Part shown: positions 20,710 through 40,253 of the stretch, one piece after another
How the letters are laid out: every line of letters begins with the position of its first letter
How positions within the stretch are numbered: the stretch's first letter is position 1
Source: Sphingomonadaceae bacterium
GTDB taxonomy: Bacteria; Pseudomonadota; Alphaproteobacteria; Sphingomonadales; Sphingomonadaceae
DNA: 64,000 nt
Assembly (NCBI GenBank): GCA_947476735.1
Contig: CANJRZ010000001.1
Coordinates: 17,288 to 81,287 of the forward strand
Direction: 5' to 3'
The notes under the pieces: model-generated
The model's input: only the letters and a program-made list of their open reading frames with translations
Database searches by the model: none
Told to the model about the DNA's origin: nothing
Program-made: the position numbers and the translations under genes

Positions 20710-21465
20710 ATGGCCGACCTATTGAACCTGGCGGGTAAAACCGCCTTCGTTACCGGTGCGTCGGGCGGCCTCGGCGCGCATTTCGCGGCGGTACTGGCAA
20801 GTGCGGGCGCTGCGGTGATCGTTGGCGCGCGGCGCGAGGACGCGCTGGCCGATGTGGCTGCGCGGATCCGAGCGGCGGGCGGCGCATGCACGACCGCGAC
20901 GCTCGACATATCGAGCGCCGCGAGCATCACCTCAGTCGAGCCGCTGCTGGCGAAGGTCGACATTCTCGTCAACAATGCCGGCATCGTGATCGAGAAGCCG
21001 TTCCTCGAACAGAGTGAGGCCGATTGGGACGCCGTGGTCGATACTAACGCCAAGGGCATGTTCCTGCTGACCCAGGCGGTCGCGCGGGCGATGCGAGCGC
21101 GGGGCGCCGGTGGATCAGTGATCAACATCGCCTCGATCCTGGGACTGCGCCAGGGCGGCATGGTAATGACCTATGCAGTGTCCAAGGCGGCAGCGATCCA
21201 GTTCACCAGGATCGCGGCGCTTGAACTGGCCCGCTTCGGAATCCGCGTCAACGCGATCTGTCCCGGCTATATCGCCACCGACCTCAATAGCGCGTTCTGG
21301 GAGACCGAATCCGGCAAGGCGATGCTGAAGCGCATCCCCCAGCGGCGCCTGGGCGCATTGCCCGAACTCGACGGCCCGCTGCTGCTGCTGGCCTCGGACG
21401 CCTCGTCTTACATGACCGGATCGGTGATCGTTGCCGACGGCGGCCATCTCGTCAGCACCCTGTGA
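20710..21465 (+). CDS. SDR oxidoreductase, LvaD-like (candidate 4-oxoacyl-CoA reductase)
   Basis: TGASGGLGAHFA, YAVSK, C-terminal LDGPLLLLASD..DGGHLVSTL resembling LvaD (recall). Confidence 0.85.
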   Translation: MADLLNLAGKTAFVTGASGGLGAHFAAVLASAGAAVIVGARREDALADVAARIRAAGGACTTATLDISSAASITSVEPLLAKVDILVNNAGIVIEKPFLEQSEADWDAVVDTNAKGMFLLTQAVARAMRARGAGGSVINIASILGLRQGGMVMTYAVSKAAAIQFTRIAALELARFGIRVNAICPGYIATDLNSAFWETESGKAMLKRIPQRRLGALPELDGPLLLLASDASSYMTGSVIVADGGHLVSTL

Positions 21466-21478
21466 ACGGAGAGATATT

Positions 21479-22630
21479 TTGAGCGAACGGGCTGAGGCGA
21501 TTGCCGCGAAGGTCGAGGCCTTCGTCCGCGAGACAGTCTTCCCCTATGAGAAGGACCCGCGCGCGACGTCGCATGGCCCGACCGACGAACTGGTCCAGGA
21601 GATGCGGGCCAAGGCGGGGGCGGCGGGGGTGCTGACCCCGCATATCCTGTCTGACGGATCGCACCTCAACCAGCGCGAGACCGCGATCGTTCTGAAGAAG
21701 TCCGGACTGTCCCCGCTGGGGCCGCTCGCGGTGAACACCATGGCGCCCGACGAGGGCAATATCTACCTGCTCGGCAAGGTCGGGACGCCCGAGCAGCAGC
21801 GCCGCTTCCTCGACCGGCTCGTCTCGGGCGAGAGCCGCTCGGCCTTTTTCATGACCGAACCGGCGAGCGAGGGTGGCGCGGGCTCCGACCCATCGATGAT
21901 GCGGACGACCTGCCGGCTCGACGGCAATCACTGGGTGATCGACGGGCGCAAGGCGTTCATCACCGGGGCGCAAGGCGCGAAGGTCGGCATCGTTATGGCG
22001 AAGGCCGAGGAGGGCGCGTGCATGTTCCTCGTCGATCTGCCCGATCCGGCAATCCGGATCGAGCGGCTGCTCGAGACGATCGACAGCTCGATGCCGGGCG
22101 GCCATGCGGTCGTCGCGATCGACAATCTGCGGGTGCCGGCCGACCAGATGCTTGGGGCGGCGGGCGAGGGCTTCAAATATGCCCAGGTGCGGCTGAGCCC
22201 GGCGCGGCTGTCGCACTGTATGCGCTGGCATGGCTGCGCGACCCGGGCACAGGAGATCGCGACCGACTATGCCTGCCGGCGCGAGGCCTTCGGCAAGAAG
22301 CTGGTCGACCATGAGGGGGTCGGCTTCATGCTCGCCGAAAATCTGATCGACCTGAAGCAGGCCGAGCTGATGATCGACTGGTGCGCCGATGTCCTCGACA
22401 GCGGGTCGCTCGGCACGGTCGAAAGCTCGATGGCCAAGGTGGCGGTGTCGGAGGCGCTCTACCGGGTGGCCGATCGCTGCGTCCAGGTGATGGGCGGTAC
22501 CGGCGTCTCGGGCGACACGGTGGTCGAGCAGATCTTCCGCGAGATACGGGCGTTCCGGATTTATGACGGGCCGACCGAGGTCCACAAATGGAGCCTCGCC
22601 AAGAAGATCAAGCGGGATCACGCCCGGTGA
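21479..22630 (+). CDS. Acyl-CoA dehydrogenase, LvaC/ACAD10-11-like
   Basis: DPRATSHGP, APDEGN, FFMTEP..GSDP, RIYDGPTEVH; TTG start at 21479 with GGAGAG SD. Confidence 0.9.
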   Translation: MSERAEAIAAKVEAFVRETVFPYEKDPRATSHGPTDELVQEMRAKAGAAGVLTPHILSDGSHLNQRETAIVLKKSGLSPLGPLAVNTMAPDEGNIYLLGKVGTPEQQRRFLDRLVSGESRSAFFMTEPASEGGAGSDPSMMRTTCRLDGNHWVIDGRKAFITGAQGAKVGIVMAKAEEGACMFLVDLPDPAIRIERLLETIDSSMPGGHAVVAIDNLRVPADQMLGAAGEGFKYAQVRLSPARLSHCMRWHGCATRAQEIATDYACRREAFGKKLVDHEGVGFMLAENLIDLKQAELMIDWCADVLDSGSLGTVESSMAKVAVSEALYRVADRCVQVMGGTGVSGDTVVEQIFREIRAFRIYDGPTEVHKWSLAKKIKRDHAR

Positions 22631-23688
22631 GCGGGACCGGGCAAGCGGAGAATGAGGGCACGACTCCGGTCCGCCCGGGCTTCGCTTTCGACGAGGCGAG
22701 CCTCGCCAGCTGGATGTCGGAGCATGTACCGGGCTTCGAAGGGCGCTTGAGCGTCGAACAGTTCAAGGGTGGCCAGTCCAACCCGACTTACAAGTTGCTG
22801 ACGCCGCGGAGGACATATGTGCTTCGACGCAAGCCGCCGGGACAGCTTCTCAAAGGTGCCCATGCCGTCGAGCGCGAGGCGCAGGTGCTGACCGGCCTTG
22901 AGAAAGCGGACTTCCCGGTGGCCCACGTCCACGCCCTGTGTACCAACGATGCGGTGATCGGTAGTTGGTTCTATGTGATGGACATGGTCGATGGGCGGGT
23001 GTTCTGGGACGCCGCCTTGCCGGATGTGCCGCGCGAACATAGGGCCGCTTATTACGACGCGATGAACGCGACGATCGCGGCGCTTCACAGGGTCGATTAT
23101 GAAGCGGTGGGGCTCGGTGACTACGGCAAGCCCGGCAATTATTTCGAACGGCAGATCGCCCGCTGGTCCAGGCAATATCTCGACGATGCCGAAGCGGGAC
23201 GGGATGTGAACATGGACCGCCTGATAGAATGGCTCCCCGCCAACGTCCCACCCGGTGACGATACCAGCATCGTCCATGGCGACTTCCGTATCGATAATAT
23301 GATTTTCCACCCGACCGAGCCGCGCATCCTTGCCGTCCTCGATTGGGAACTCTCAACGCTCGGTCATCCGCTCGCCGACTTTGCCTATCACGCTATGATG
23401 TACAGAATGCCGCCGCATATCGTCGCCGGTCTGGGCGGCGCTAACCTTTCCGACCTGAGCCTTCCGAGCGAGGGTGACTATGTCGCCGCCTATTGCACGC
23501 GCACGGGGCGGGACGCGATCTCGAATTACAGCTTCTATCTCGCTTTCAATTTCTTCCGCCTCGCGGCGATCTTCCACGGCATCAAGGGCCGGGTGATCCG
23601 AGGCACTGCGGCGTCGGCGCAGGCGGCGGAACGCGCCGCTCTTTTTCCGGAACTGGCTGCAATCGCGTGGTCGCAGGCTACCGCATAG
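22627..23688 (+). CDS. APH-family phosphotransferase, ACAD10/11 kinase-domain-like
   Basis: GGQSNPTY, VLRRKPPG..AHAVERE, VHGDFRIDN, LDWELSTLG; GTGA overlap with the ACAD stop. Confidence 0.92.
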   Translation: MSGTGQAENEGTTPVRPGFAFDEASLASWMSEHVPGFEGRLSVEQFKGGQSNPTYKLLTPRRTYVLRRKPPGQLLKGAHAVEREAQVLTGLEKADFPVAHVHALCTNDAVIGSWFYVMDMVDGRVFWDAALPDVPREHRAAYYDAMNATIAALHRVDYEAVGLGDYGKPGNYFERQIARWSRQYLDDAEAGRDVNMDRLIEWLPANVPPGDDTSIVHGDFRIDNMIFHPTEPRILAVLDWELSTLGHPLADFAYHAMMYRMPPHIVAGLGGANLSDLSLPSEGDYVAAYCTRTGRDAISNYSFYLAFNFFRLAAIFHGIKGRVIRGTAASAQAAERAALFPELAAIAWSQATA

Positions 23689-23759: not shown

Positions 23760-23963
23760 CTAATCGAGTAGCGAACCAGCTTTGAGCCCCAGCGGTCGCG
23801 CCAGCTTCTCGACAACCGCGATCGTTGGATTTCTGGCGCCGCGCTCGATATCGCTGACGTACGTCCGATGGATGCCGGCCTCGTCGGCATAGGCCTCCTG
23901 GCTCCAGCCCTTCTCCTCGCGGAGACGGCGAACATTCTTCCCCAGGTGCTCTCGGATATCCAC
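23760..23963 (-). CDS. XRE-family HTH protein, restriction-modification controller (C-protein)-like
   Basis: 67 aa; GIHRTYVSDIERGARNPT recognition-helix motif; GTG start with no SD. Confidence 0.88.
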   Translation of the reverse strand: MDIREHLGKNVRRLREEKGWSQEAYADEAGIHRTYVSDIERGARNPTIAVVEKLARPLGLKAGSLLD

Positions 23964-23986: not shown

Positions 23987-24012
23987 GACGATCGATCTAC
24001 AGACGATCAGTG
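23987..24012 (-). promoter_or_regulatory. C-box-like operator CACTGATCGTC-TGTA-GATCGATCGTC
   Basis: Two 11-bp boxes with a central TGTA spacer, ending 23 nt before the HTH start; matches the established C-protein operator layout. Confidence 0.65.
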
Positions 24013-24058
24013 ACAATAGAGTTGACTGTCCGCCTCTTCAGAGCATTGGTCGCGTCAC

Positions 24059-25097
24059 TCACCGTCGGATGCATCTCCAGTTCGCTGCCCCGCGTCGCCG
24101 ACATCGAGCTGATCCCGGCATAGTCCCAGACATTGGTGCGATATCGTCCGGTGTCCCCCAACCCGAAGCTGTTGGTGTGCTCGGCCGTCCCCTGCTTGAA
24201 GACGAAGATCAGCTCGTGTTTCGAGCGATAGAAGGACCCCATGCCCCCATTGGTCTTGTTCCACACCACCAGGTTCTGAGCTCGGTGAAGGCCGCCTTCC
24301 CTGCCGCGAGCAACTCGCCCATGTGGCGCCAGTCCATGCACACGAACGCGATCGCCCCGTCCCGCATCACCGACGACATCGCCGACAATGTCTCGGTCAG
24401 GAAACCGGTAAATTGGCTTTCGCTCACCTCACCGCTCGCGAAGGCGAACTCGCGGTGCTGGACCTTGCCATGTCCCGAGACATGACCATCGATTGGGACA
24501 TTATAGGGCGGATCGGTGAAGATCAGGTCGGCGCGCTCGTCGCCGAGGAGCGTGGCGTAGTCGCGCATCGCCACAGATTAGCTTGTGGCGCCCCAGAAGC
24601 CATAGATCGCCACGCCGCGAGACCGCATGGGCGGCCATGGCCGGTACCGCGTCTTCAGGCGCATCCGAACCATCAGGATCACTGTCGCCGGCTTCGTCGA
24701 GCGCGAAGTCGATCTCGGCGAGACTGAAGCCGGTGACCGACATATCGAAACCCAGGTCGATCAGGCCCTGGAGTTCGATCGCGAGGATCTCGCGGTCCCA
24801 GCCAGCATTCAGCGCGAGCTTGTTGTCGGCGAGGACATAGGCCCGTCGTTCGGTCTCGGACAAATGCGAGAGCGCGATCGTCGGCACCGACTTCATGCCG
24901 AGCAGGCGAGCCGCCTCGACCCGACCATGGCCGGCAATGATTTCGCCTTCGTCCGACACCAGCACCGGGTTCGTGAAGCCGAAGCGTTCGATGCTGTCGG
25001 CGATTTGTCGGATCTGTTTCTTGGAGTGTGTGCGCGCATTGCGCGCGTACGGTTTCAGCGAAGAAACGCTACGATCGAGCACTTGATACAAATGCAT
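24059..25097 (-). pseudogene. ParB/Srx-domain plus amino-DNA methyltransferase fusion, with two frameshifts and a truncated 3' end
   Basis: Three consecutive frames: ParB domain (IIAGHGRVEAA) to LICGDAR; shift near 24563 to FTDPPYN..AFTEL; shift near 24277 to NLVVWNK..MHPTV. Homology then stops before the expected FxGSG SAM-binding motif. Confidence 0.88.
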
Positions 25098-25263
25098 GGG
25101 GACCCCCCATAACAATGGTTTCCCTCCACTGACGATCTTAGCAAAAAGGCGCGCTCAGCGCAAGAACAGGCCGGGAACGAACCTGTGCAAAACCTTCCGG
25201 TTGGGGGCCGGGCAACGCCGCGATGGTGAGGCGCTGTACCGAGGCTGAGCGTCCGTCGGATCG

Positions 25264-25516
25264 CTGATACAGCAATCCGAAGTCCCTGATACGGACCTGA
25301 TACATCCCTGTTCGGTGGATCTAATTTCCCTGTTATCTGCGCAGGGAATTTCGCTGATAAAATGGCTGAAATCTGGGGATAATTGGGGATCTAAGGCGGT
25401 GGCAGATGGCCACAAAATGGAATTTTCCCTGTTAATTCCCTAAAAACAGGGAATTACAGGGTGAGACCCGTTCGCTCCGGACTGCCCCCCGCACCACCCA
25501 GTCCCTGATTCAGGGG
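25264..25516. repeat. Array of about 10 CCCTG(A/T)T / A(A/T)CAGGG motifs in direct and inverted orientation
   Basis: ccctgatac 25284, cctgatac 25296, ccctgttc 25306, ccctgtta 25328, cagggaatt 25342, ccctgtta 25427, aacaggg 25445, tacaggg 25455, palindrome ccctgattcaggg 25503-25515. Confidence 0.75.
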
Positions 25517-25739
25517 CTTTCAGAGACACTTGGGTAGCTCTCCCCGAAAGTCCCGCGCTTCCGCGGGATTCTCCGGCCCGACCTCGAAATGTGTGGCCAG
25601 AGACCGCTCCGTCTCGGGCCATTTCTCCGCTTTTTGAGCCTAAGTCTCAAATGCCGAAATCAGTGGCCACAGATTTGAAATGCCCGAAAAGATGAGGCAC
25701 GCCGATGGCGCGCCTCGTAGTTCTCGATGGTAATGCTGG

Positions 25740-27410
25740 TCAGGCGAAGCCGAGCTGGCGTCGCTGCTGATCCCACTCGACGGGCAGGTCAGCCATCCGC
25801 AGCAAGGAGCGAGTGGTAAGTTCGACCGGCTGGCGACCTTCAAGGATCGCTGTGACAATGTCTGGGGCCAGGAAGTTGAGGCGCGCAAGCCGGACCGTCT
25901 GTCGCCTCGTCTCCCCGACAGCTTTCCCGGTGAGCAGTTCCTGATAGGCCGACCGGCCCTGCGCCAGGATCTGGATCAATCGATCGTCGCGAGCGGCCGG
26001 TCGCGCTTCGGGCGCTGCATAGACGAGCTTCAGCTCATGCCCCCGCCGTCGCAGCTGCACCTCGATATTGATCGCTATCGGCTCCTCCGAGGCTGCCGCA
26101 CCATCACAGGCGATCAGGCCGAGCAGCTTCGAAGGCTCGATGAGGATGGAAATAACCTCCTGGCGTAGGATGATCCGTGCGCTAAGGTCACGGAGGAGCT
26201 TGCTCAATGATGCGGGATCATTGGCAAGCTCCGACAGCTGGCCAGCGGCACTTTCGAAGGCCACATTTGCCTTCAGCGCGTCACCCAGTTCCGCCGACAC
26301 ACGCAGCGGATCATTCAAGAAGCTCTTGAGACTTTTCTCGATCATCCCCTCCAGGTCCGGCGCAGGGATGCGCCAAGGCGCTTCGGCGTGGTCTGCGTCG
26401 TCGCGCGAGACATAATAGCGGTAGCGGCGATTGCCGCGGTTGCCATGAGCCGGTGCCATCATGCGGCCCAGGCCATCTTCGAGAAAACCGTTGAGCGGGC
26501 TCGGCAGGCTTTTCCTTGGGCGCGGAGCGTTGGTGGCCTTGCTGAAGAGCAGCTGGTTCGCGTCCCAGAGTTCCTGGGAGATGATCGCTTCATGCTCCCC
26601 CTGATATATCTGGTCGCCGTGGCGGATGAGACCGATGAAGATGACGTTGCGCAGCAAGTAGGCGAGGGCACCGTAGTTGTAGGGCGTGCCGCCTACGACC
26701 CGCCCATCCTGCATCATCCTGACCTTCGACCGGATACCCTTGACGGCAAGATCCTCGACCAGCTCAGGGATGGATCCAAGCTCGACATGGCGCTCGAATA
26801 TGTATCGGACGGTTGCCGCTTCTGTCTCATTGATCAGGAGCTTCCGCTCATGAAGGTCGTAGCCCACCGGGACGGGACCTCCCATCCACATGCCCTTCTT
26901 CTTCGAGGCGGCGATCTTGTCGCGGATGCGCTCGCCGGTCACCTCGCGCTCGAACTGGGCGAAGGACAGCAGCACGTTGAGCGTCAACCTTCCCATGCTG
27001 GTCGTTGTGTTGAAGGCTTGGGTGACCGAGACGAAGCTCACGCCATGTCTGTCGAGGATCTCGACGATGCGAGCAAAGTCCGACAGGGCGCGGGTCAGCC
27101 GGTCGACCTTGTATATGACGATCACTTGGATACGACCGCTCTCGACATCCGCAAGCAGCCGCTTGAGGGCAGGGCGCTCCATCGTCCCGCCGGAATAGCC
27201 ACCATCATCGTAGAAGGTCGGGTCCATCTCCCAGCCCTCGTGGCGCTGGCTGGCGATATAGGCAGCGCATGCCTCTCGCTGGGCGTCCAGACTGTTGAAC
27301 GCCTGATCAAGGCCCTCGTCGGTCGACTTACGGGTATAGACGGCGCACCGCACTTTACGGGCGCCTGTGGGGCTCGCATTGGCGAGCGTCCTGGGTCCAC
27401 GCTTAGCCAT
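25740..27410 (-). CDS. Large serine recombinase
   Basis: Catalytic AVYTRKS, DDGGYSGGTMERPAL, VYKVDRLTR, FAQFERE, followed by a recombinase domain; 556 aa, uninterrupted. Confidence 0.95.
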   Translation of the reverse strand: MAKRGPRTLANASPTGARKVRCAVYTRKSTDEGLDQAFNSLDAQREACAAYIASQRHEGWEMDPTFYDDGGYSGGTMERPALKRLLADVESGRIQVIVIYKVDRLTRALSDFARIVEILDRHGVSFVSVTQAFNTTTSMGRLTLNVLLSFAQFEREVTGERIRDKIAASKKKGMWMGGPVPVGYDLHERKLLINETEAATVRYIFERHVELGSIPELVEDLAVKGIRSKVRMMQDGRVVGGTPYNYGALAYLLRNVIFIGLIRHGDQIYQGEHEAIISQELWDANQLLFSKATNAPRPRKSLPSPLNGFLEDGLGRMMAPAHGNRGNRRYRYYVSRDDADHAEAPWRIPAPDLEGMIEKSLKSFLNDPLRVSAELGDALKANVAFESAAGQLSELANDPASLSKLLRDLSARIILRQEVISILIEPSKLLGLIACDGAAASEEPIAINIEVQLRRRGHELKLVYAAPEARPAARDDRLIQILAQGRSAYQELLTGKAVGETRRQTVRLARLNFLAPDIVTAILEGRQPVELTTRSLLRMADLPVEWDQQRRQLGFA

Positions 27411-27852
27411 GGGCCTGTCCTCCTCGCGAGGGTGGGCTCGGCCTTCGCTTCAATCCGAAGAAGCGCGGGCCTGACCAATGCGATCCGGTGATCTCGCGGG
27501 CGATGTGCGACAAGGACGCGAAGCGGCGACCGTCAAAGCTGAAGCCGTCGTCATCGACCATGACAGTGTGAATCTTGCCATTCCATTCGCGCAGCAGCCG
27601 CGAGCCCGGCTTCAGGCGAATAGGAGCATCGGGCAGGGGCGTCACACCATCCGCGATGATGTCGAGCATCCGAAGCGCCGACGCTGGCAAGCCGCCAAGC
27701 ACTACTTCTTGCAGCCTATAAGCGATGACCCGGCGTAGCATCGAAGCTGGGAAATCGGGTGCGCCCTCTCCGAAGCTGCTCTGCCACTCCTCGCGCAGCT
27801 GGGGTGGCGACATCGTCGCCAGCCCAGCCAGTTTCTCATCGAGCTTGCCCAT
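27403..27852 (-). CDS. DUF2924-like protein
   Basis: LKPGSRLLREWNG, SLSHIAREITGSHWSGPRFFGL; overlaps the recombinase start. Confidence 0.88.
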   Translation of the reverse strand: MGKLDEKLAGLATMSPPQLREEWQSSFGEGAPDFPASMLRRVIAYRLQEVVLGGLPASALRMLDIIADGVTPLPDAPIRLKPGSRLLREWNGKIHTVMVDDDGFSFDGRRFASLSHIAREITGSHWSGPRFFGLKRRPSPPSRGGQAHG

Positions 27853-27854
27853 GA

Positions 27855-28382
27855 TCAGGCGGTGACCGCGATCTGGTAGCGGGTGATCCCGTCCACCTTG
27901 GACTTCTCGATGTTGTGGCCCTTCTTGCGGAGGCCCGTCAGTGCCGCACGCGAGGTGTGCGGCAACCAGCCGGTCGCGTTCACGACATCTTCCAGGGTCG
28001 CACCGCCGTCGCGCTTGAGGAGGTCGATCAGCATCGACTGTTTGGTGGCCGGTCCCGGGGCAGGCGGCGCGGCTTGCCCATCCGCTTCCTTCCCCGTCCT
28101 ATCCTCCGCCCCGGCGTTGGGGCCGGCGGGCGGGTTGATGATCGCGCGGCCGGCATCGGTGACGACGACGCCGATGGTGAGGTCGCCATCGGTCCGCCAG
28201 ACCTGCGCGGCGGTCATTCCCTCCTGCTCGGTAGCGAGGCCCTTCTTGATCAGGGCTTCGACCGCTTTTCGGATGCGGTCAGCCTGATCGCCGAGGCTCT
28301 CGGGCGGGGGTAGCAAGCTACCGTCTTCGCGCTGGCAGGCGGTGGTGAGCAGTACGAGCTGCATGTCGGTCAGCTTGGTCAT
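27855..28382 (-). CDS. DUF3489-like winged-helix protein
   Basis: MTKLTDMQLVLL N-terminus; C-terminal TKQSMLIDLL..GATLEDVVNATGWLPHTSRAALTGLRKKG; ATG 28382 with AAGGA SD. Confidence 0.85.
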   Translation of the reverse strand: MTKLTDMQLVLLTTACQREDGSLLPPPESLGDQADRIRKAVEALIKKGLATEQEGMTAAQVWRTDGDLTIGVVVTDAGRAIINPPAGPNAGAEDRTGKEADGQAAPPAPGPATKQSMLIDLLKRDGGATLEDVVNATGWLPHTSRAALTGLRKKGHNIEKSKVDGITRYQIAVTA

Positions 28383-28600
28383 ATGGGTGGTCCTTTTCTG
28401 GGCAAGGGCGCCATTGCCCCTCCCACCACCCACAGCCCCGCCGGTTGCCCGGTCGGGGTATGCGCCGGTTCGTTCCACCGGTGCGATTCACACGAGCACC
28501 AATGCTTGGTGTCGCAACCAAGTCGAGCAAATAGTGCAGGAAAATGCTCGGTCTGGACTGTTCTGGCGCTTCCCGCCTTGGTGTCGGTCGGAGGTGGCCC

Positions 28601-28819
28601 ATGGACCAGGAGGAACGCGCGGATCTTGTTGCCAGGCTATTCGCGCTGATGACGAGCAAGCTCGAGGACGCGGCTCACGAGGCCATGGAAGGGCAGCGCA
28701 AAGGCTTGGAGGAGAGCGATCAGATAGCGCGAGCCGAACGGATTGAAATGGCATCCCGCGACATCGGTCTGCTCGCAGAAGCGGTGGCGGCGATATTGCG
28801 CTCTCAACTCGCCGGCTGA
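28601..28819 (+). CDS. Hypothetical 72-aa, probably helical protein
   Basis: Strong SD GGAGGT before ATG 28601; amphipathic-helical composition; divergent from the DUF3489-like gene. Confidence 0.65.
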   Translation: MDQEERADLVARLFALMTSKLEDAAHEAMEGQRKGLEESDQIARAERIEMASRDIGLLAEAVAAILRSQLAG

Positions 28820-29008: not shown

Positions 29009-29812
29009 ATGACCGAGGCACCGCACCTTTTGGTGAGCGAAGATAACGGCATCCTGATCGCCACACTCAACCGCCCCGAAAAGCTTAACGCGCTTGGCTC
29101 GCAACTCATGAAAGGGCTTGGCGAAGCGGTTGAGATTTTCCGCGATACGCCTGACCTCAAGGTGATGCTGATCAGAGCAACCGGGCGCTATTTCTCGGCC
29201 GGTGCCGATCTCAAGGAAGGGGGAGAGGGTAGCGCGATGCCCACGACCGGTTCGGGGATCAGGGAAATGCACCGCCGCCTGCCCAACCGGATGCGGCAGA
29301 TCTGGGACGAGATCGAGCATATCGAGAAACCCTTCGTCGTCGCCCATCAGGGCATGTGCGTCGGCGGAAGTCTCGAACTGTCGCTCTCCTGCGATTTCCG
29401 CCTTGCCGCGACAAGCGCCGGCTATGCCTTTCCGGAAGCCAAATTCGGCCTCCTGCCTGCCACCAATGGCGTCAGCAGACTGACCCGGCTGGTGGGACCG
29501 CACTGGGCGCGGCTGCTGATCATGGCCAATCTGCCTGCCACCGCTGCGGAAGCTTACAATATGGGCCTTGTCCACAAGGTCTTCGCCGATGAGACCTTCG
29601 AAAGGGATGTCATGGACTTCTGCCATCATCTGGCCCGCCAGAATGGCGAGATGATGGGTGCCGCCAAGATTGCAATCGAGCTCGCAGCCGATCTGGGGGC
29701 CGAGCAGGCCGCCGCGGTGGAGCGAATGGCCAACAGCTCGCTGATGCTGATGCCATCCTATCAGGAAGGCATGCGCCGACACCTCGCCACAATCGGCAGC
29801 AAGAAGGACTGA
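29009..29812 (+). CDS. Enoyl-CoA hydratase/isomerase
   Basis: YFSAGADL, CVGGSLEL, FPEAKFG; GAGGAG SD. Confidence 0.92.
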   Translation: MTEAPHLLVSEDNGILIATLNRPEKLNALGSQLMKGLGEAVEIFRDTPDLKVMLIRATGRYFSAGADLKEGGEGSAMPTTGSGIREMHRRLPNRMRQIWDEIEHIEKPFVVAHQGMCVGGSLELSLSCDFRLAATSAGYAFPEAKFGLLPATNGVSRLTRLVGPHWARLLIMANLPATAAEAYNMGLVHKVFADETFERDVMDFCHHLARQNGEMMGAAKIAIELAADLGAEQAAAVERMANSSLMLMPSYQEGMRRHLATIGSKKD

Positions 29813-40054: not shown

Positions 40055-40253
40055 GACCGCATCGTCCCCGCCGAGACTGCGATCGAGCCTGCAACCGATC
40101 TGGGGGCGGGCAGGCCGCTGCGGTGTATCAGGAAGGCATGCGCCGACACCTCGTCACCATCGGCAGCAATGGGAGCCGACGCGCGCGTCAGTTCCCTCGG
40201 TATTCGAGGACGTGGGCGCGCGGCCGTTCTTCCCTTCCGCAACGACCATGTCG

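Follow-up and report, generated by a model that had tools for sequence, protein, structure and literature searches.

A stretch of 64,000 nucleotides from a Sphingomonadaceae bacterium (GCA_947476735.1, contig CANJRZ010000001.1, positions 17,288 to 81,287; hereafter the window) carries three contiguous genes, transcribed in the same direction on the minus strand, that code for a DUF3489 protein, a DUF2924 protein and a large serine recombinase (LSR). Analysis of this locus led us to regard it, with some confidence, as the integration/excision module of a genomic island that targets a tRNA gene and stands in a tandem array, the DUF2924 protein being the DNA-binding partner of the LSR. The three-gene arrangement is far beyond chance, since the genome contains three or more full copies of it and a DUF2924 gene was directly followed by an LSR gene in 78 of 80 and in 30 of 30 sampled loci. 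Comparison of these loci indicates that tRNA genes are the targets of the module, which integrates genomic islands at their 3' ends, a role usually credited to tyrosine integrases. This targeting would be the defining biology of the module, and it was absent from the original prediction, which had been made from the letters of the window and had seen in the locus a recombination system dependent on accessory factors.

Two samples of loci were used. The near sample comprised 80 DUF2924 loci from species-representative genomes, mostly of Sphingomonadales, with others from Acetobacteraceae, Hyphomicrobiales and metagenome-assembled genomes (MAGs) of Acidobacteriota, Marinomonas and "Deltaproteobacteria". 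The phylum-wide sample came from a hidden Markov model search of 301 evenly drawn Pseudomonadota genomes, 65 of which (22%) contained DUF2924, often in multiple copies; the 30 best loci (L147-L176) were examined. The original prediction had tied both DUF families to this recombinase clade. For DUF2924 the tie was borne out, with an LSR gene directly after it in 108 of the 110 loci. For DUF3489 it was not: this family was detectable upstream of DUF2924 in about 68 of the 80 near loci and in none of the 30 best phylum-wide ones, which have in its place a conserved open reading frame (ORF) of about 60 aa. This substitute, present outside Alphaproteobacteria, reads ..DP.RMT.EERL.EAA.ILA.GI.RL..K.E.IPLDKSP..PYG.K and was assigned to no family. 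Since the DUF2924-LSR pair occurs in all 30 of these loci without DUF3489, the invariant core consists of DUF2924 and the recombinase, and the first gene is lineage-specific. In the genome under study, all four DUF2924 and all three DUF3489 matches fall inside such modules. A DUF2924 profile search of 1.84 billion cluster representatives (50% identity) retrieved 12,149 clusters at E<=1e-3, and the literature found mentioning either family did not address the function of DUF2924 or DUF3489.

The LSR gene (25740-27410, minus strand, 556 aa) was delimited from the ORF list, Pfam and PHROG, and the DUF2924 gene (27403-27852, minus strand, 149 aa) from the ORF list and Pfam. The DUF3489 frame (27855-28478, minus strand) is open to a GTG at 28478, and its likely start is the ATG at 28382, which gives a gene of 175 aa (27855-28382); this ATG has AAGGA upstream, and PHROG 10315 aligns over the full length of the product from residue 1. 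The DUF3489 and DUF2924 genes are separated by a gap of 2 bp (TGA-TC-ATG). DUF2924 overlaps the LSR start by 8 bp (ATGGCTAA, with GGAGGA upstream), which suggests translational coupling. The three uninterrupted, coupled genes, with their overlap and gap, had been described in the original prediction and were all confirmed in the sequence, the ORFs lying at the stated coordinates. Comparison with a second copy in the same genome (copy 2, see below) gave ratios of nonsynonymous to synonymous substitutions (dN/dS) of 0.10 for LSR, 0.13 for DUF2924 and 0.19 for DUF3489, with dS of about 0.3-0.37. These values indicate purifying selection on all three genes and hence their retention as working genes. 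DUF3489 would be the most dispensable member of the trio, as suggested by in-frame stops in its frame in L009 (Rhizorhabdus argentea), L035 and L045, where DUF2924 and LSR are intact.

The product of the LSR gene has both the catalytic and the Recombinase domains of serine integrases, as shown by Pfam matches to Resolvase (PF00239, 1.1e-37) and Recombinase (PF07508, 1.3e-10, residues 195-290). Its best sequence relatives in the PDB are TP901-1 Int (1.1e-22), SPbeta YokA/SprA and the C-terminal domain of A118 Int (aligned at 182-334); NCBIfam gave sub-threshold similarity only, to CcrB, XisF and CcrA, and PHROG gave phrog_95 and, for the C-terminal part, phrog_14161. In a clade alignment of 54 sequences, with a mean column identity of 51%, the catalytic Ser29 in the motif YTRKS is invariant, together with R27, D103, R104 and R107; an intact catalytic serine and the lack of a clear Cys4 zinc ribbon had both been noted before, and both observations hold for the clade. 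Zn_ribbon_recom (PF13408) did not match the C-terminal half of the LSR even at E<=10, and none of the 54 members has a conserved Cys beyond residue 48, the only invariant ones, C22 and C48, belonging to the catalytic domain. In place of the ribbon stands a segment that is Cys-less yet conserved (PSLLAG..D..GR.M.P.HA.KG..RYRYYV; G308, D312 and G315), with a helical stretch alongside. An extra C-terminal domain is also conserved in the clade (LAPDI..AI..GRQP..LT.R.L.R...LP.DW..QR).

Both small proteins look like DNA-binding proteins in their predicted structures. The DUF3489 protein (PF11994, 4.6e-19, 68.7 bits against a gathering cut-off of 29.5) was modeled at a predicted local distance difference test (pLDDT) score of 86 as a pair of winged-helix domains (residues 1-82 and 114-171) with a disordered linker, rich in Pro and Ala, between them. 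Its profile matches the MecI/BlaI DNA-binding domain (E 7e-4), and Foldseek retrieved tandem-winged-helix proteins and members of the MecI, ArsR and MarR families, in line with the winged-helix nature initially proposed for it. The family is fast-evolving, with a mean column identity of 17%. The corresponding value for DUF2924 (PF11149, 1.6e-41, 142.2 bits against a gathering cut-off of 31.2) is 44%, near that of the LSR. The DUF2924 model (pLDDT 86) consists of a four-helix N-domain and a C-terminal four-strand sheet with a helix, and this C-terminal domain bears an invariant T..HWSGPRFF motif. A metagenomic protein of 977 aa (P0070) contains four tandem DUF2924 C-terminal domains, a four-fold repeat indicating that this half is an independent, repeatable module; it matches the Pfam family RAMA at 4.3e-08 (33.5 bits, below the Pfam cut-off of 35.2 bits). 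A link between DUF2924 and RAMA was also made elsewhere (PMC11342252).

Analysis of the sequences past the LSR stop codon revealed a complete, convergent tRNA gene in 50 of 67 assessable loci, at 186-358 nt from the stop in all but one of them (558 nt). The targets of the family are tRNA-Thr (GGT, CGT and TGT), Phe, Leu-GAG, Asn, Ser, Gln and Arg. In the genome under study copy 2 adjoins the CCA end of tRNA-Thr(GGT), and the window copy adjoins a mimic of a tRNA end instead. All 19 congeners have the flank of tRNA-Thr as part of their core sequence; the site carries the module in two of them (one being R. argentea) and remnants of its flank in two more. The sequence directly 3' of the CCA is variable and always forms a self-complementary hairpin followed by T or A runs, and so the element would supply a new terminator-like structure. 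The first eight bases past the CCA are conserved position by position (NNCAGTCC being exact in 15 of 50 loci, and T at +6 in 44 of 50), and beyond the hairpin the blocks AGAGAGACC and CCCGC..TTCCGCGG are conserved. At the far end of the elements no exact repeat of a tRNA fragment of at least 12 nt was found, a degenerate mimic of the T-loop and acceptor being present instead. In the paper on Islander, serine-family integrases are described as not known to target tRNA genes (PMC4383910); tRNA-Met was later given as the predicted site of one Paracoccus phage that has a serine recombinase (PMC6536676), and serine recombinases occur on a few Mesorhizobium integrative and mobilizable elements (PMC8627217).

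The attachment (att) sites could be delimited in two minimal elements, L055 (Humitalea sp., tRNA-Ser) and L069 (tRNA-Gln), in which the trio and its att sites constitute the whole element of 3.2-3.3 kb. Their far end is a degenerate T-loop/acceptor mimic ending in CCA, located 171-197 nt upstream of DUF3489. After the CCA, where the element ends, the sequence continues as the tRNA's own downstream flank, terminator hairpin included, and this flank is also found 3' of a ...CCGCCA end in Neoroseomonas and Roseomonas. The L055 mimic, which is unable to form a T-stem, matches in 26 of 34 nt, including GGTTCGAATCCC and ATCCGCCA. From this geometry, attB would comprise the 3' end of the tRNA together with the flank behind it, and attP would imitate the tRNA end in its P arm. 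Crossover is predicted at the CCA or no more than a few bases away, its exact point being estimated from such comparisons, and would leave the tRNA intact; the lack of exact repeats flanking the elements is as expected of a serine recombinase. The minimal mobile module that had been proposed for the window therefore exists in the family, as L055 and L069, whereas the cassette in the window would form one terminus of a larger island.

Besides the window copy (copy 1, a module of 3.2-3.4 kb at 25491-28698, taken as reference), the genome contains copy 2 at C1:7503-10710, 35 kb upstream and in the same orientation (90% nucleotide identity; LSR 93% at the amino acid level), copy 3 at C14:26842-30242 (72% nucleotide identity), and partial copies on C11, C400 and C319. 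Copy 1 is bordered by a pseudo-tRNA 3' end (25457-25496, plus strand; hereafter X) made up of a T-loop and acceptor mimic (..GAGACCCGTTCGCTCCGG..GCACCA) and ending in ..GAGACCCGTTCGCTCCGGACTGCCCCCCGCACCA. X is read as belonging to a neighboring upstream island, as the P arm of its far end. It was also considered as an RNA gene, which was rejected (no ARAGORN match, and in Rfam only sub-threshold chance matches, to YenS with 16.6 bits against 80 and to SpF03), and as conserved core sequence, rejected as well, X being absent from 19 congeners. The junction core (25479-25504) is an inverted repeat, GGACTG (25479-25484) and CAGTCC (25499-25504), around CCCCCCGCACCACC, and includes the decamer GCACCACCCA (25491-25500) as the putative crossover region; its equivalent on C319 is a near-perfect 22-bp palindrome. 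On the element side, the P' arm (25497-25739) runs from the junction to the LSR stop and is conserved with copies 2 and 3. It contains in order CCCAGTCC, a CCCTGATTCAGGG hairpin plus GCTTT as terminator-like replacement for the tRNA, and the AGAGAC and CCCGC..TTCCGCGG blocks.

Comparison of the copies located the exchange more closely. Copies 1 and 2 are 90% alike and have unrelated left sides (X versus tRNA-Thr), and copies 1 and 3 are 72% alike and have an identical X: the last 106 bases of C14 (30137-30242) are 100% identical to window positions 25395-25500, the adjoining modules being only 72% alike. The homology between copies 1 and 2 begins at GCACCACCCA, which is also where the X shared by the window and C14 ceases to be identical, and only this decamer is common to all three junction types of the genome. 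These junction comparisons put the swap point within GCACCACCCA, and no exact repeats flank the islands. A crossover in the anticodon loop, suggested by seven loci that lack a full tRNA and have, beside the LSR flank, tRNA 3' halves starting exactly at that loop, was rejected. The left side was swapped independently of the recombinase side, which argues against it, and in this genome the tRNA "half" goes with the X side and not with the recombinase side. Such breaks can be ascribed to secondary insertions of tyrosine-integrase islands because genes of this type lie beyond the fragments in L012, L017 and L021, at most about 5 kb away on the opposite side, and border the fragment directly in L012 and L021 (these genes were judged tyrosine-integrase-like by eye, from R-H-R-Y-type motifs and not by Pfam). 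Since the window cassette adjoins a mimic and not a tRNA, it most likely stands second in an array of tandem islands that is anchored at tRNA-Thr(GGT). The simplest reading of the head-to-tail order would be tRNA-Thr, island A (35.3 kb, from copy 2 to an XRE gene, a ParB-methylase pseudogene, a motif array and the mimic) and island B.

According to this model, the locus would be the integration/excision module at the tRNA-proximal end of island B, whose cargo would extend rightwards from about 25500. The LSR would recombine attP with an attB at the tRNA 3' end (T-loop, acceptor strand and CCA) and the downstream flank, with the P arm of attP imitating the tRNA end and the P' arm supplying a replacement terminator-like hairpin. 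Island A would sit on tRNA-Thr(GGT), and its far end would adjoin the P' arm of island B to form the tandem junction. The DUF2924 protein would act as the dedicated DNA-binding partner of the LSR, either as a site-recognition cofactor or, as in xis-int operons, as a directionality factor; its translational coupling to the LSR, equally slow evolution and universal linkage all point to a partner role. DUF3489, or its substitute in other lineages, would be an element-specific regulator or architectural protein, a role in line with its being a fast-evolving tandem winged helix that is replaced by another small protein elsewhere. The array beside the mimic may hold accessory sites, or may equally serve the ParB-methylase gene. 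The crossover point, the formation of the tandem array and the role of each DUF are what we infer from sequence comparison.

The array (25263-25460), formed by CCCTG(A/T)T, CAGGG and (C/G)CTGAT motifs, lies between the start of the ParB-methylase gene and the P-arm mimic. The window contains 27 matches to these motifs against 14.3 expected, clustered in the array at spacings of about 11 and 22 bp, partly of 22 bp. The original prediction had made this array a part of the module, which did not hold, since the array is outside the conserved 3.3-kb module and homology with the other copies begins to the right of it. A similar AACAGG array stands beside the mimic of L010. A hairpin with a 9-bp stem (TTCCCTGTT..AACAGGGAA), noted along with these motifs, turned up again at six places in G045, a complete genome from another family, one of them about 225 bp beyond the gene for a serine recombinase. 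The gene next to the array (23997-25115, minus strand) codes for a fusion of ParB-N and an N6_N4 DNA methyltransferase, and it is a pseudogene in three overlapping frames (two frameshifts); an intact homologue of 451 aa occupies the same position in L018 and aligns to all three pieces. A second ParB-methylase copy, 70-75% identical, is present on C333. At 34 bp from the broken methylase lies a gene (23760-23963, minus strand, 67 aa) for an XRE-type helix-turn-helix protein resembling C proteins, which accompanies the ParB-methylase in the related elements L010, L018 and L086. The order LSR, mimic, ParB-methylase and XRE is shared by L010 and L018. A homologue of the XRE gene, 90% identical and without a methylase beside it, is located 88 kb into the tRNA-Thr island of R. 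argentea.

On the other side of the trio, a divergent small ORF (28544/28601-28819, plus strand; 91 aa, or 72 aa from the ATG at 28601) is predicted to be helical and matched no family. The 72-aa ORF that had been noted before is real, being kept in copy 3, R. argentea and L034, and is restricted to the closest relatives of the module; in copy 2 it is truncated. Between this ORF and DUF3489, alignment of copies 1-3 and R. argentea delimited a divergent control region and leader (28383-28600) with two hairpins that show compensatory changes between copies, and with the boxes CCCACCACCCA and TGGACTG. These boxes upstream of DUF3489 resemble the att junction sequence, which hints at possible autoregulation by an att-binding protein. 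A second tRNA mimic at 28415-28500, which would have bounded a minimal element of 3 kb, was considered and rejected, this segment being in the four-copy alignment a conserved leader with covarying hairpins. The right flank (28.9-31 kb) is accessory in the genus, with weak matches in 4 of 19 congeners. To the left, genes for a short-chain dehydrogenase/reductase, an acyl-CoA dehydrogenase (ACAD) and a kinase (20710-23688) form a paralogous copy outside the synteny of the genus. The cluster is about 80% conserved in 19 of 20 congeners at other chromosomal places, and a second ACAD copy, 88-91% identical, is found in this genome at C250:5185-6345; the copy in the window may be island cargo. An empty attB downstream of the ACAD-kinase genes was rejected, as the relatives have neither a tRNA nor conserved synteny there. 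Further into the window, the 3' end of an enoyl-CoA hydratase gene (29661-29802) is repeated 10 kb further at 40068-40169, with 85-95% identity over about 100 bp.

Several observations weigh against the tandem-island model with DUF2924 as partner of the LSR. Recombination between attP and attL, or the use of attL as a target, is not known from canonical serine integrases, which leaves the formation of a tandem unexplained. Neither a displaced tRNA fragment nor a mimic turned up within 92 kb in the two congeners that carry the module at tRNA-Thr. For island B, no far end was located in the window or in the rest of the assembly, and B may therefore be truncated or immobile. The 106-bp sequence that recurs unchanged as the last bases of C14 may represent a third mimic junction or an artefact of assembly (strain mixture or graph collapse), the assembly being a MAG of 496 contigs with 3.5% contamination. 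The apparent center of symmetry of the junction is GC, a palindromic dinucleotide, atypical for serine integrases. As regards DUF2924, its model gave no significant structural match in the PDB or BFVD, and on its own the protein reaches RAMA only at E 0.13. Finally, DUF3489-DUF2924 and DUF2924-Resolvase fusions occur as single-contig singletons only, and were set aside as proof of physical interaction.

The role of DUF2924 can also be read in other ways. It might be a recombination directionality factor (RDF, excisionase) in an operon like xis-int ones, with DUF3489 as only the operon repressor and the LSR integrating alone. The RDFs of serine integrases (phiC31 gp3, Bxb1 gp47 and SPbeta SprB) are small, diverse and mutually unrelated, which would suit such a protein, as would the resemblance of the gene order (small protein, then integrase) and of the translational coupling to the xis-int operons of conjugative transposons, and that of DUF3489 to MecI/BlaI repressors beside a conserved leader/operator-like region. 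However, an RDF that is always made together with its integrase would tip the balance to excision, the RDFs known for serine integrases have the integrase and not DNA as their binding partner whereas the C-terminal domain of DUF2924 looks like a RAMA-type DNA-binding one, and phage AcaML1 has a separately annotated excisionase (Gp8) besides its DUF2924 protein; we consider this role doubtful. Possible to a similar, limited degree is that DUF2924 is an obligate site-recognition subunit for the Cys-less LSR, needed in both directions and reading the T-loop/acceptor end or the CAGTCC box. The universal linkage across classes, the conservation of DUF2924 to the same level as the LSR, the absence of zinc-ribbon cysteines from the whole clade, the conserved motifs beside the crossover and the fact that the trio by itself makes complete elements are all consistent with it. 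Against it, conservation persists in the ribbon-equivalent region (RYRYYV, G308, D312, G315), whose folding may not require zinc, and the recombinases of Wolbachia WO that have a DUF2924 neighbor are reported not to target tRNAs. A wider formulation, which we put forward only tentatively, is that of a two-component serine integrase: the Cys-less LSR would need DUF2924 to recognize both the tRNA T-loop/acceptor end and the attP mimic, small changes in the mimic and in DUF2924 would retarget elements between tRNAs, and islands could stack in tandem because attL keeps an intact tRNA end. If it were true, tandem stacking and tRNA targets would no longer be a preserve of tyrosine integrases.

Whether the window copy is still mobile is a separate matter. 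It could be an immobile relic, with its genes persisting or co-opted (for instance as regulators) and the junction of X with the P' arm being a rearrangement fossil. The missing far end of island B would fit such a relic, and so would the adjacent ParB-methylase pseudogene, the truncated small ORF of copy 2 and the partial copies on C11, C400 and C319; the three intact genes with dN/dS of 0.10-0.19, the presence of every family-invariant residue and the conservation of the junction core and the P' arm speak against it, and we hold it to be rather unlikely. We regard as improbable the combined model of the original prediction, in which a single nucleoprotein complex at attP would bring together the CCCTG array and both DUF proteins, on the lambda pattern of arm-type sites. 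In its favor, the array is phased, it directly adjoins the P-arm mimic, the P' hairpins of copies 1 and 2 have the same CCCTG motif, and the AACAGG array beside the L010 mimic is comparable. But the array is absent from the minimal elements L055 and L069 as well as outside the conserved module, copy 3 combines the same X with a different hairpin, and the array is the upstream region of the ParB-methylase gene, which it may serve as operator or parS-like site. The tandem-island model, with DUF2924 as DNA-binding partner of the LSR, is the one we retain.

Serine integrases are prized for genome engineering on the assumption that short att sites suffice and cofactors are dispensable. The very large clade described here departs from that picture in having a constant small partner, no zinc ribbon and conserved tRNA-end targets, and would offer natural attB sites in almost any bacterium. 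It is a test case for the delegation of the specificity or directionality of a serine recombinase to accessory proteins, and the three-gene elements of 3.2-3.3 kb are convenient minimal systems for such tests. For the annotation of this genome, the module would explain a mosaic of accessory catabolic genes of more than 35 kb downstream of tRNA-Thr.

As an island integration module the cassette is ordinary; it is widespread and essentially unstudied, and belongs to a large, barely described clade with an unusual choice of target and with partners that are obligatory. What the window copy contributes is a clear tandem junction, together with a sister copy, 90% identical, that sits on the tRNA. 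An adjacency of DUF2924 and recombinase genes is visible in existing records but uncharacterized, and was noted for Wolbachia WO (PMC10299305). In Acidithiobacillus phage AcaML1 (Gp4-Gp3, in the module Gp5-Gp4-Gp3-Gp2) and Wolbachia phage WO, too, a DUF2924 gene immediately precedes that of the serine recombinase; those modules differ in belonging to prophages with full virion gene sets, in which tRNA targeting is not established, and no DUF3489 gene is annotated upstream of DUF2924 in the AcaML1 or WO records, no direct search for one having been made. The AcaML1 recombinase is split into Gp3 (459 aa, "large subunit") followed by Gp2 (127 aa, "site specific recombinase small subunit"), and Gp2 may be, from its position and the shorter Gp3, the counterpart of the C-terminal domain of the LSR. 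The likeness of DUF2924 to RAMA is a partial match of its C-terminal half, the window protein not reaching the family threshold. DUF3489 shares with MecI/BlaI repressors a DNA-binding domain match below the family threshold, and has two winged helices and no MecI dimerization/cleavage domain. Tyrosine-integrase islands in tRNA or tmRNA genes (P4-like and Islander-type) have in common with the present ones a preserved tRNA target, a hot spot of tandem accretion and variable cargo; they differ in the catalytic family, in the far end, which here is a degenerate mimic without an exact tRNA direct repeat, and in the junction, which here is at the very 3' end and not in the anticodon or T loop. With the large serine integrases (TP901-1, A118, phiC31, Bxb1, SPbeta SprA, TnpX and CcrA/B) the clade shares a resolvase catalytic domain with a Ser nucleophile, a recombinase domain and a gene located beside the att site. 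Unlike them, it lacks the zinc-ribbon cysteines and has an extra conserved C-terminal domain, is always accompanied by an upstream DUF2924 gene, and targets tRNA 3' ends with a tRNA-mimicking P arm, with tandem arrays occurring.

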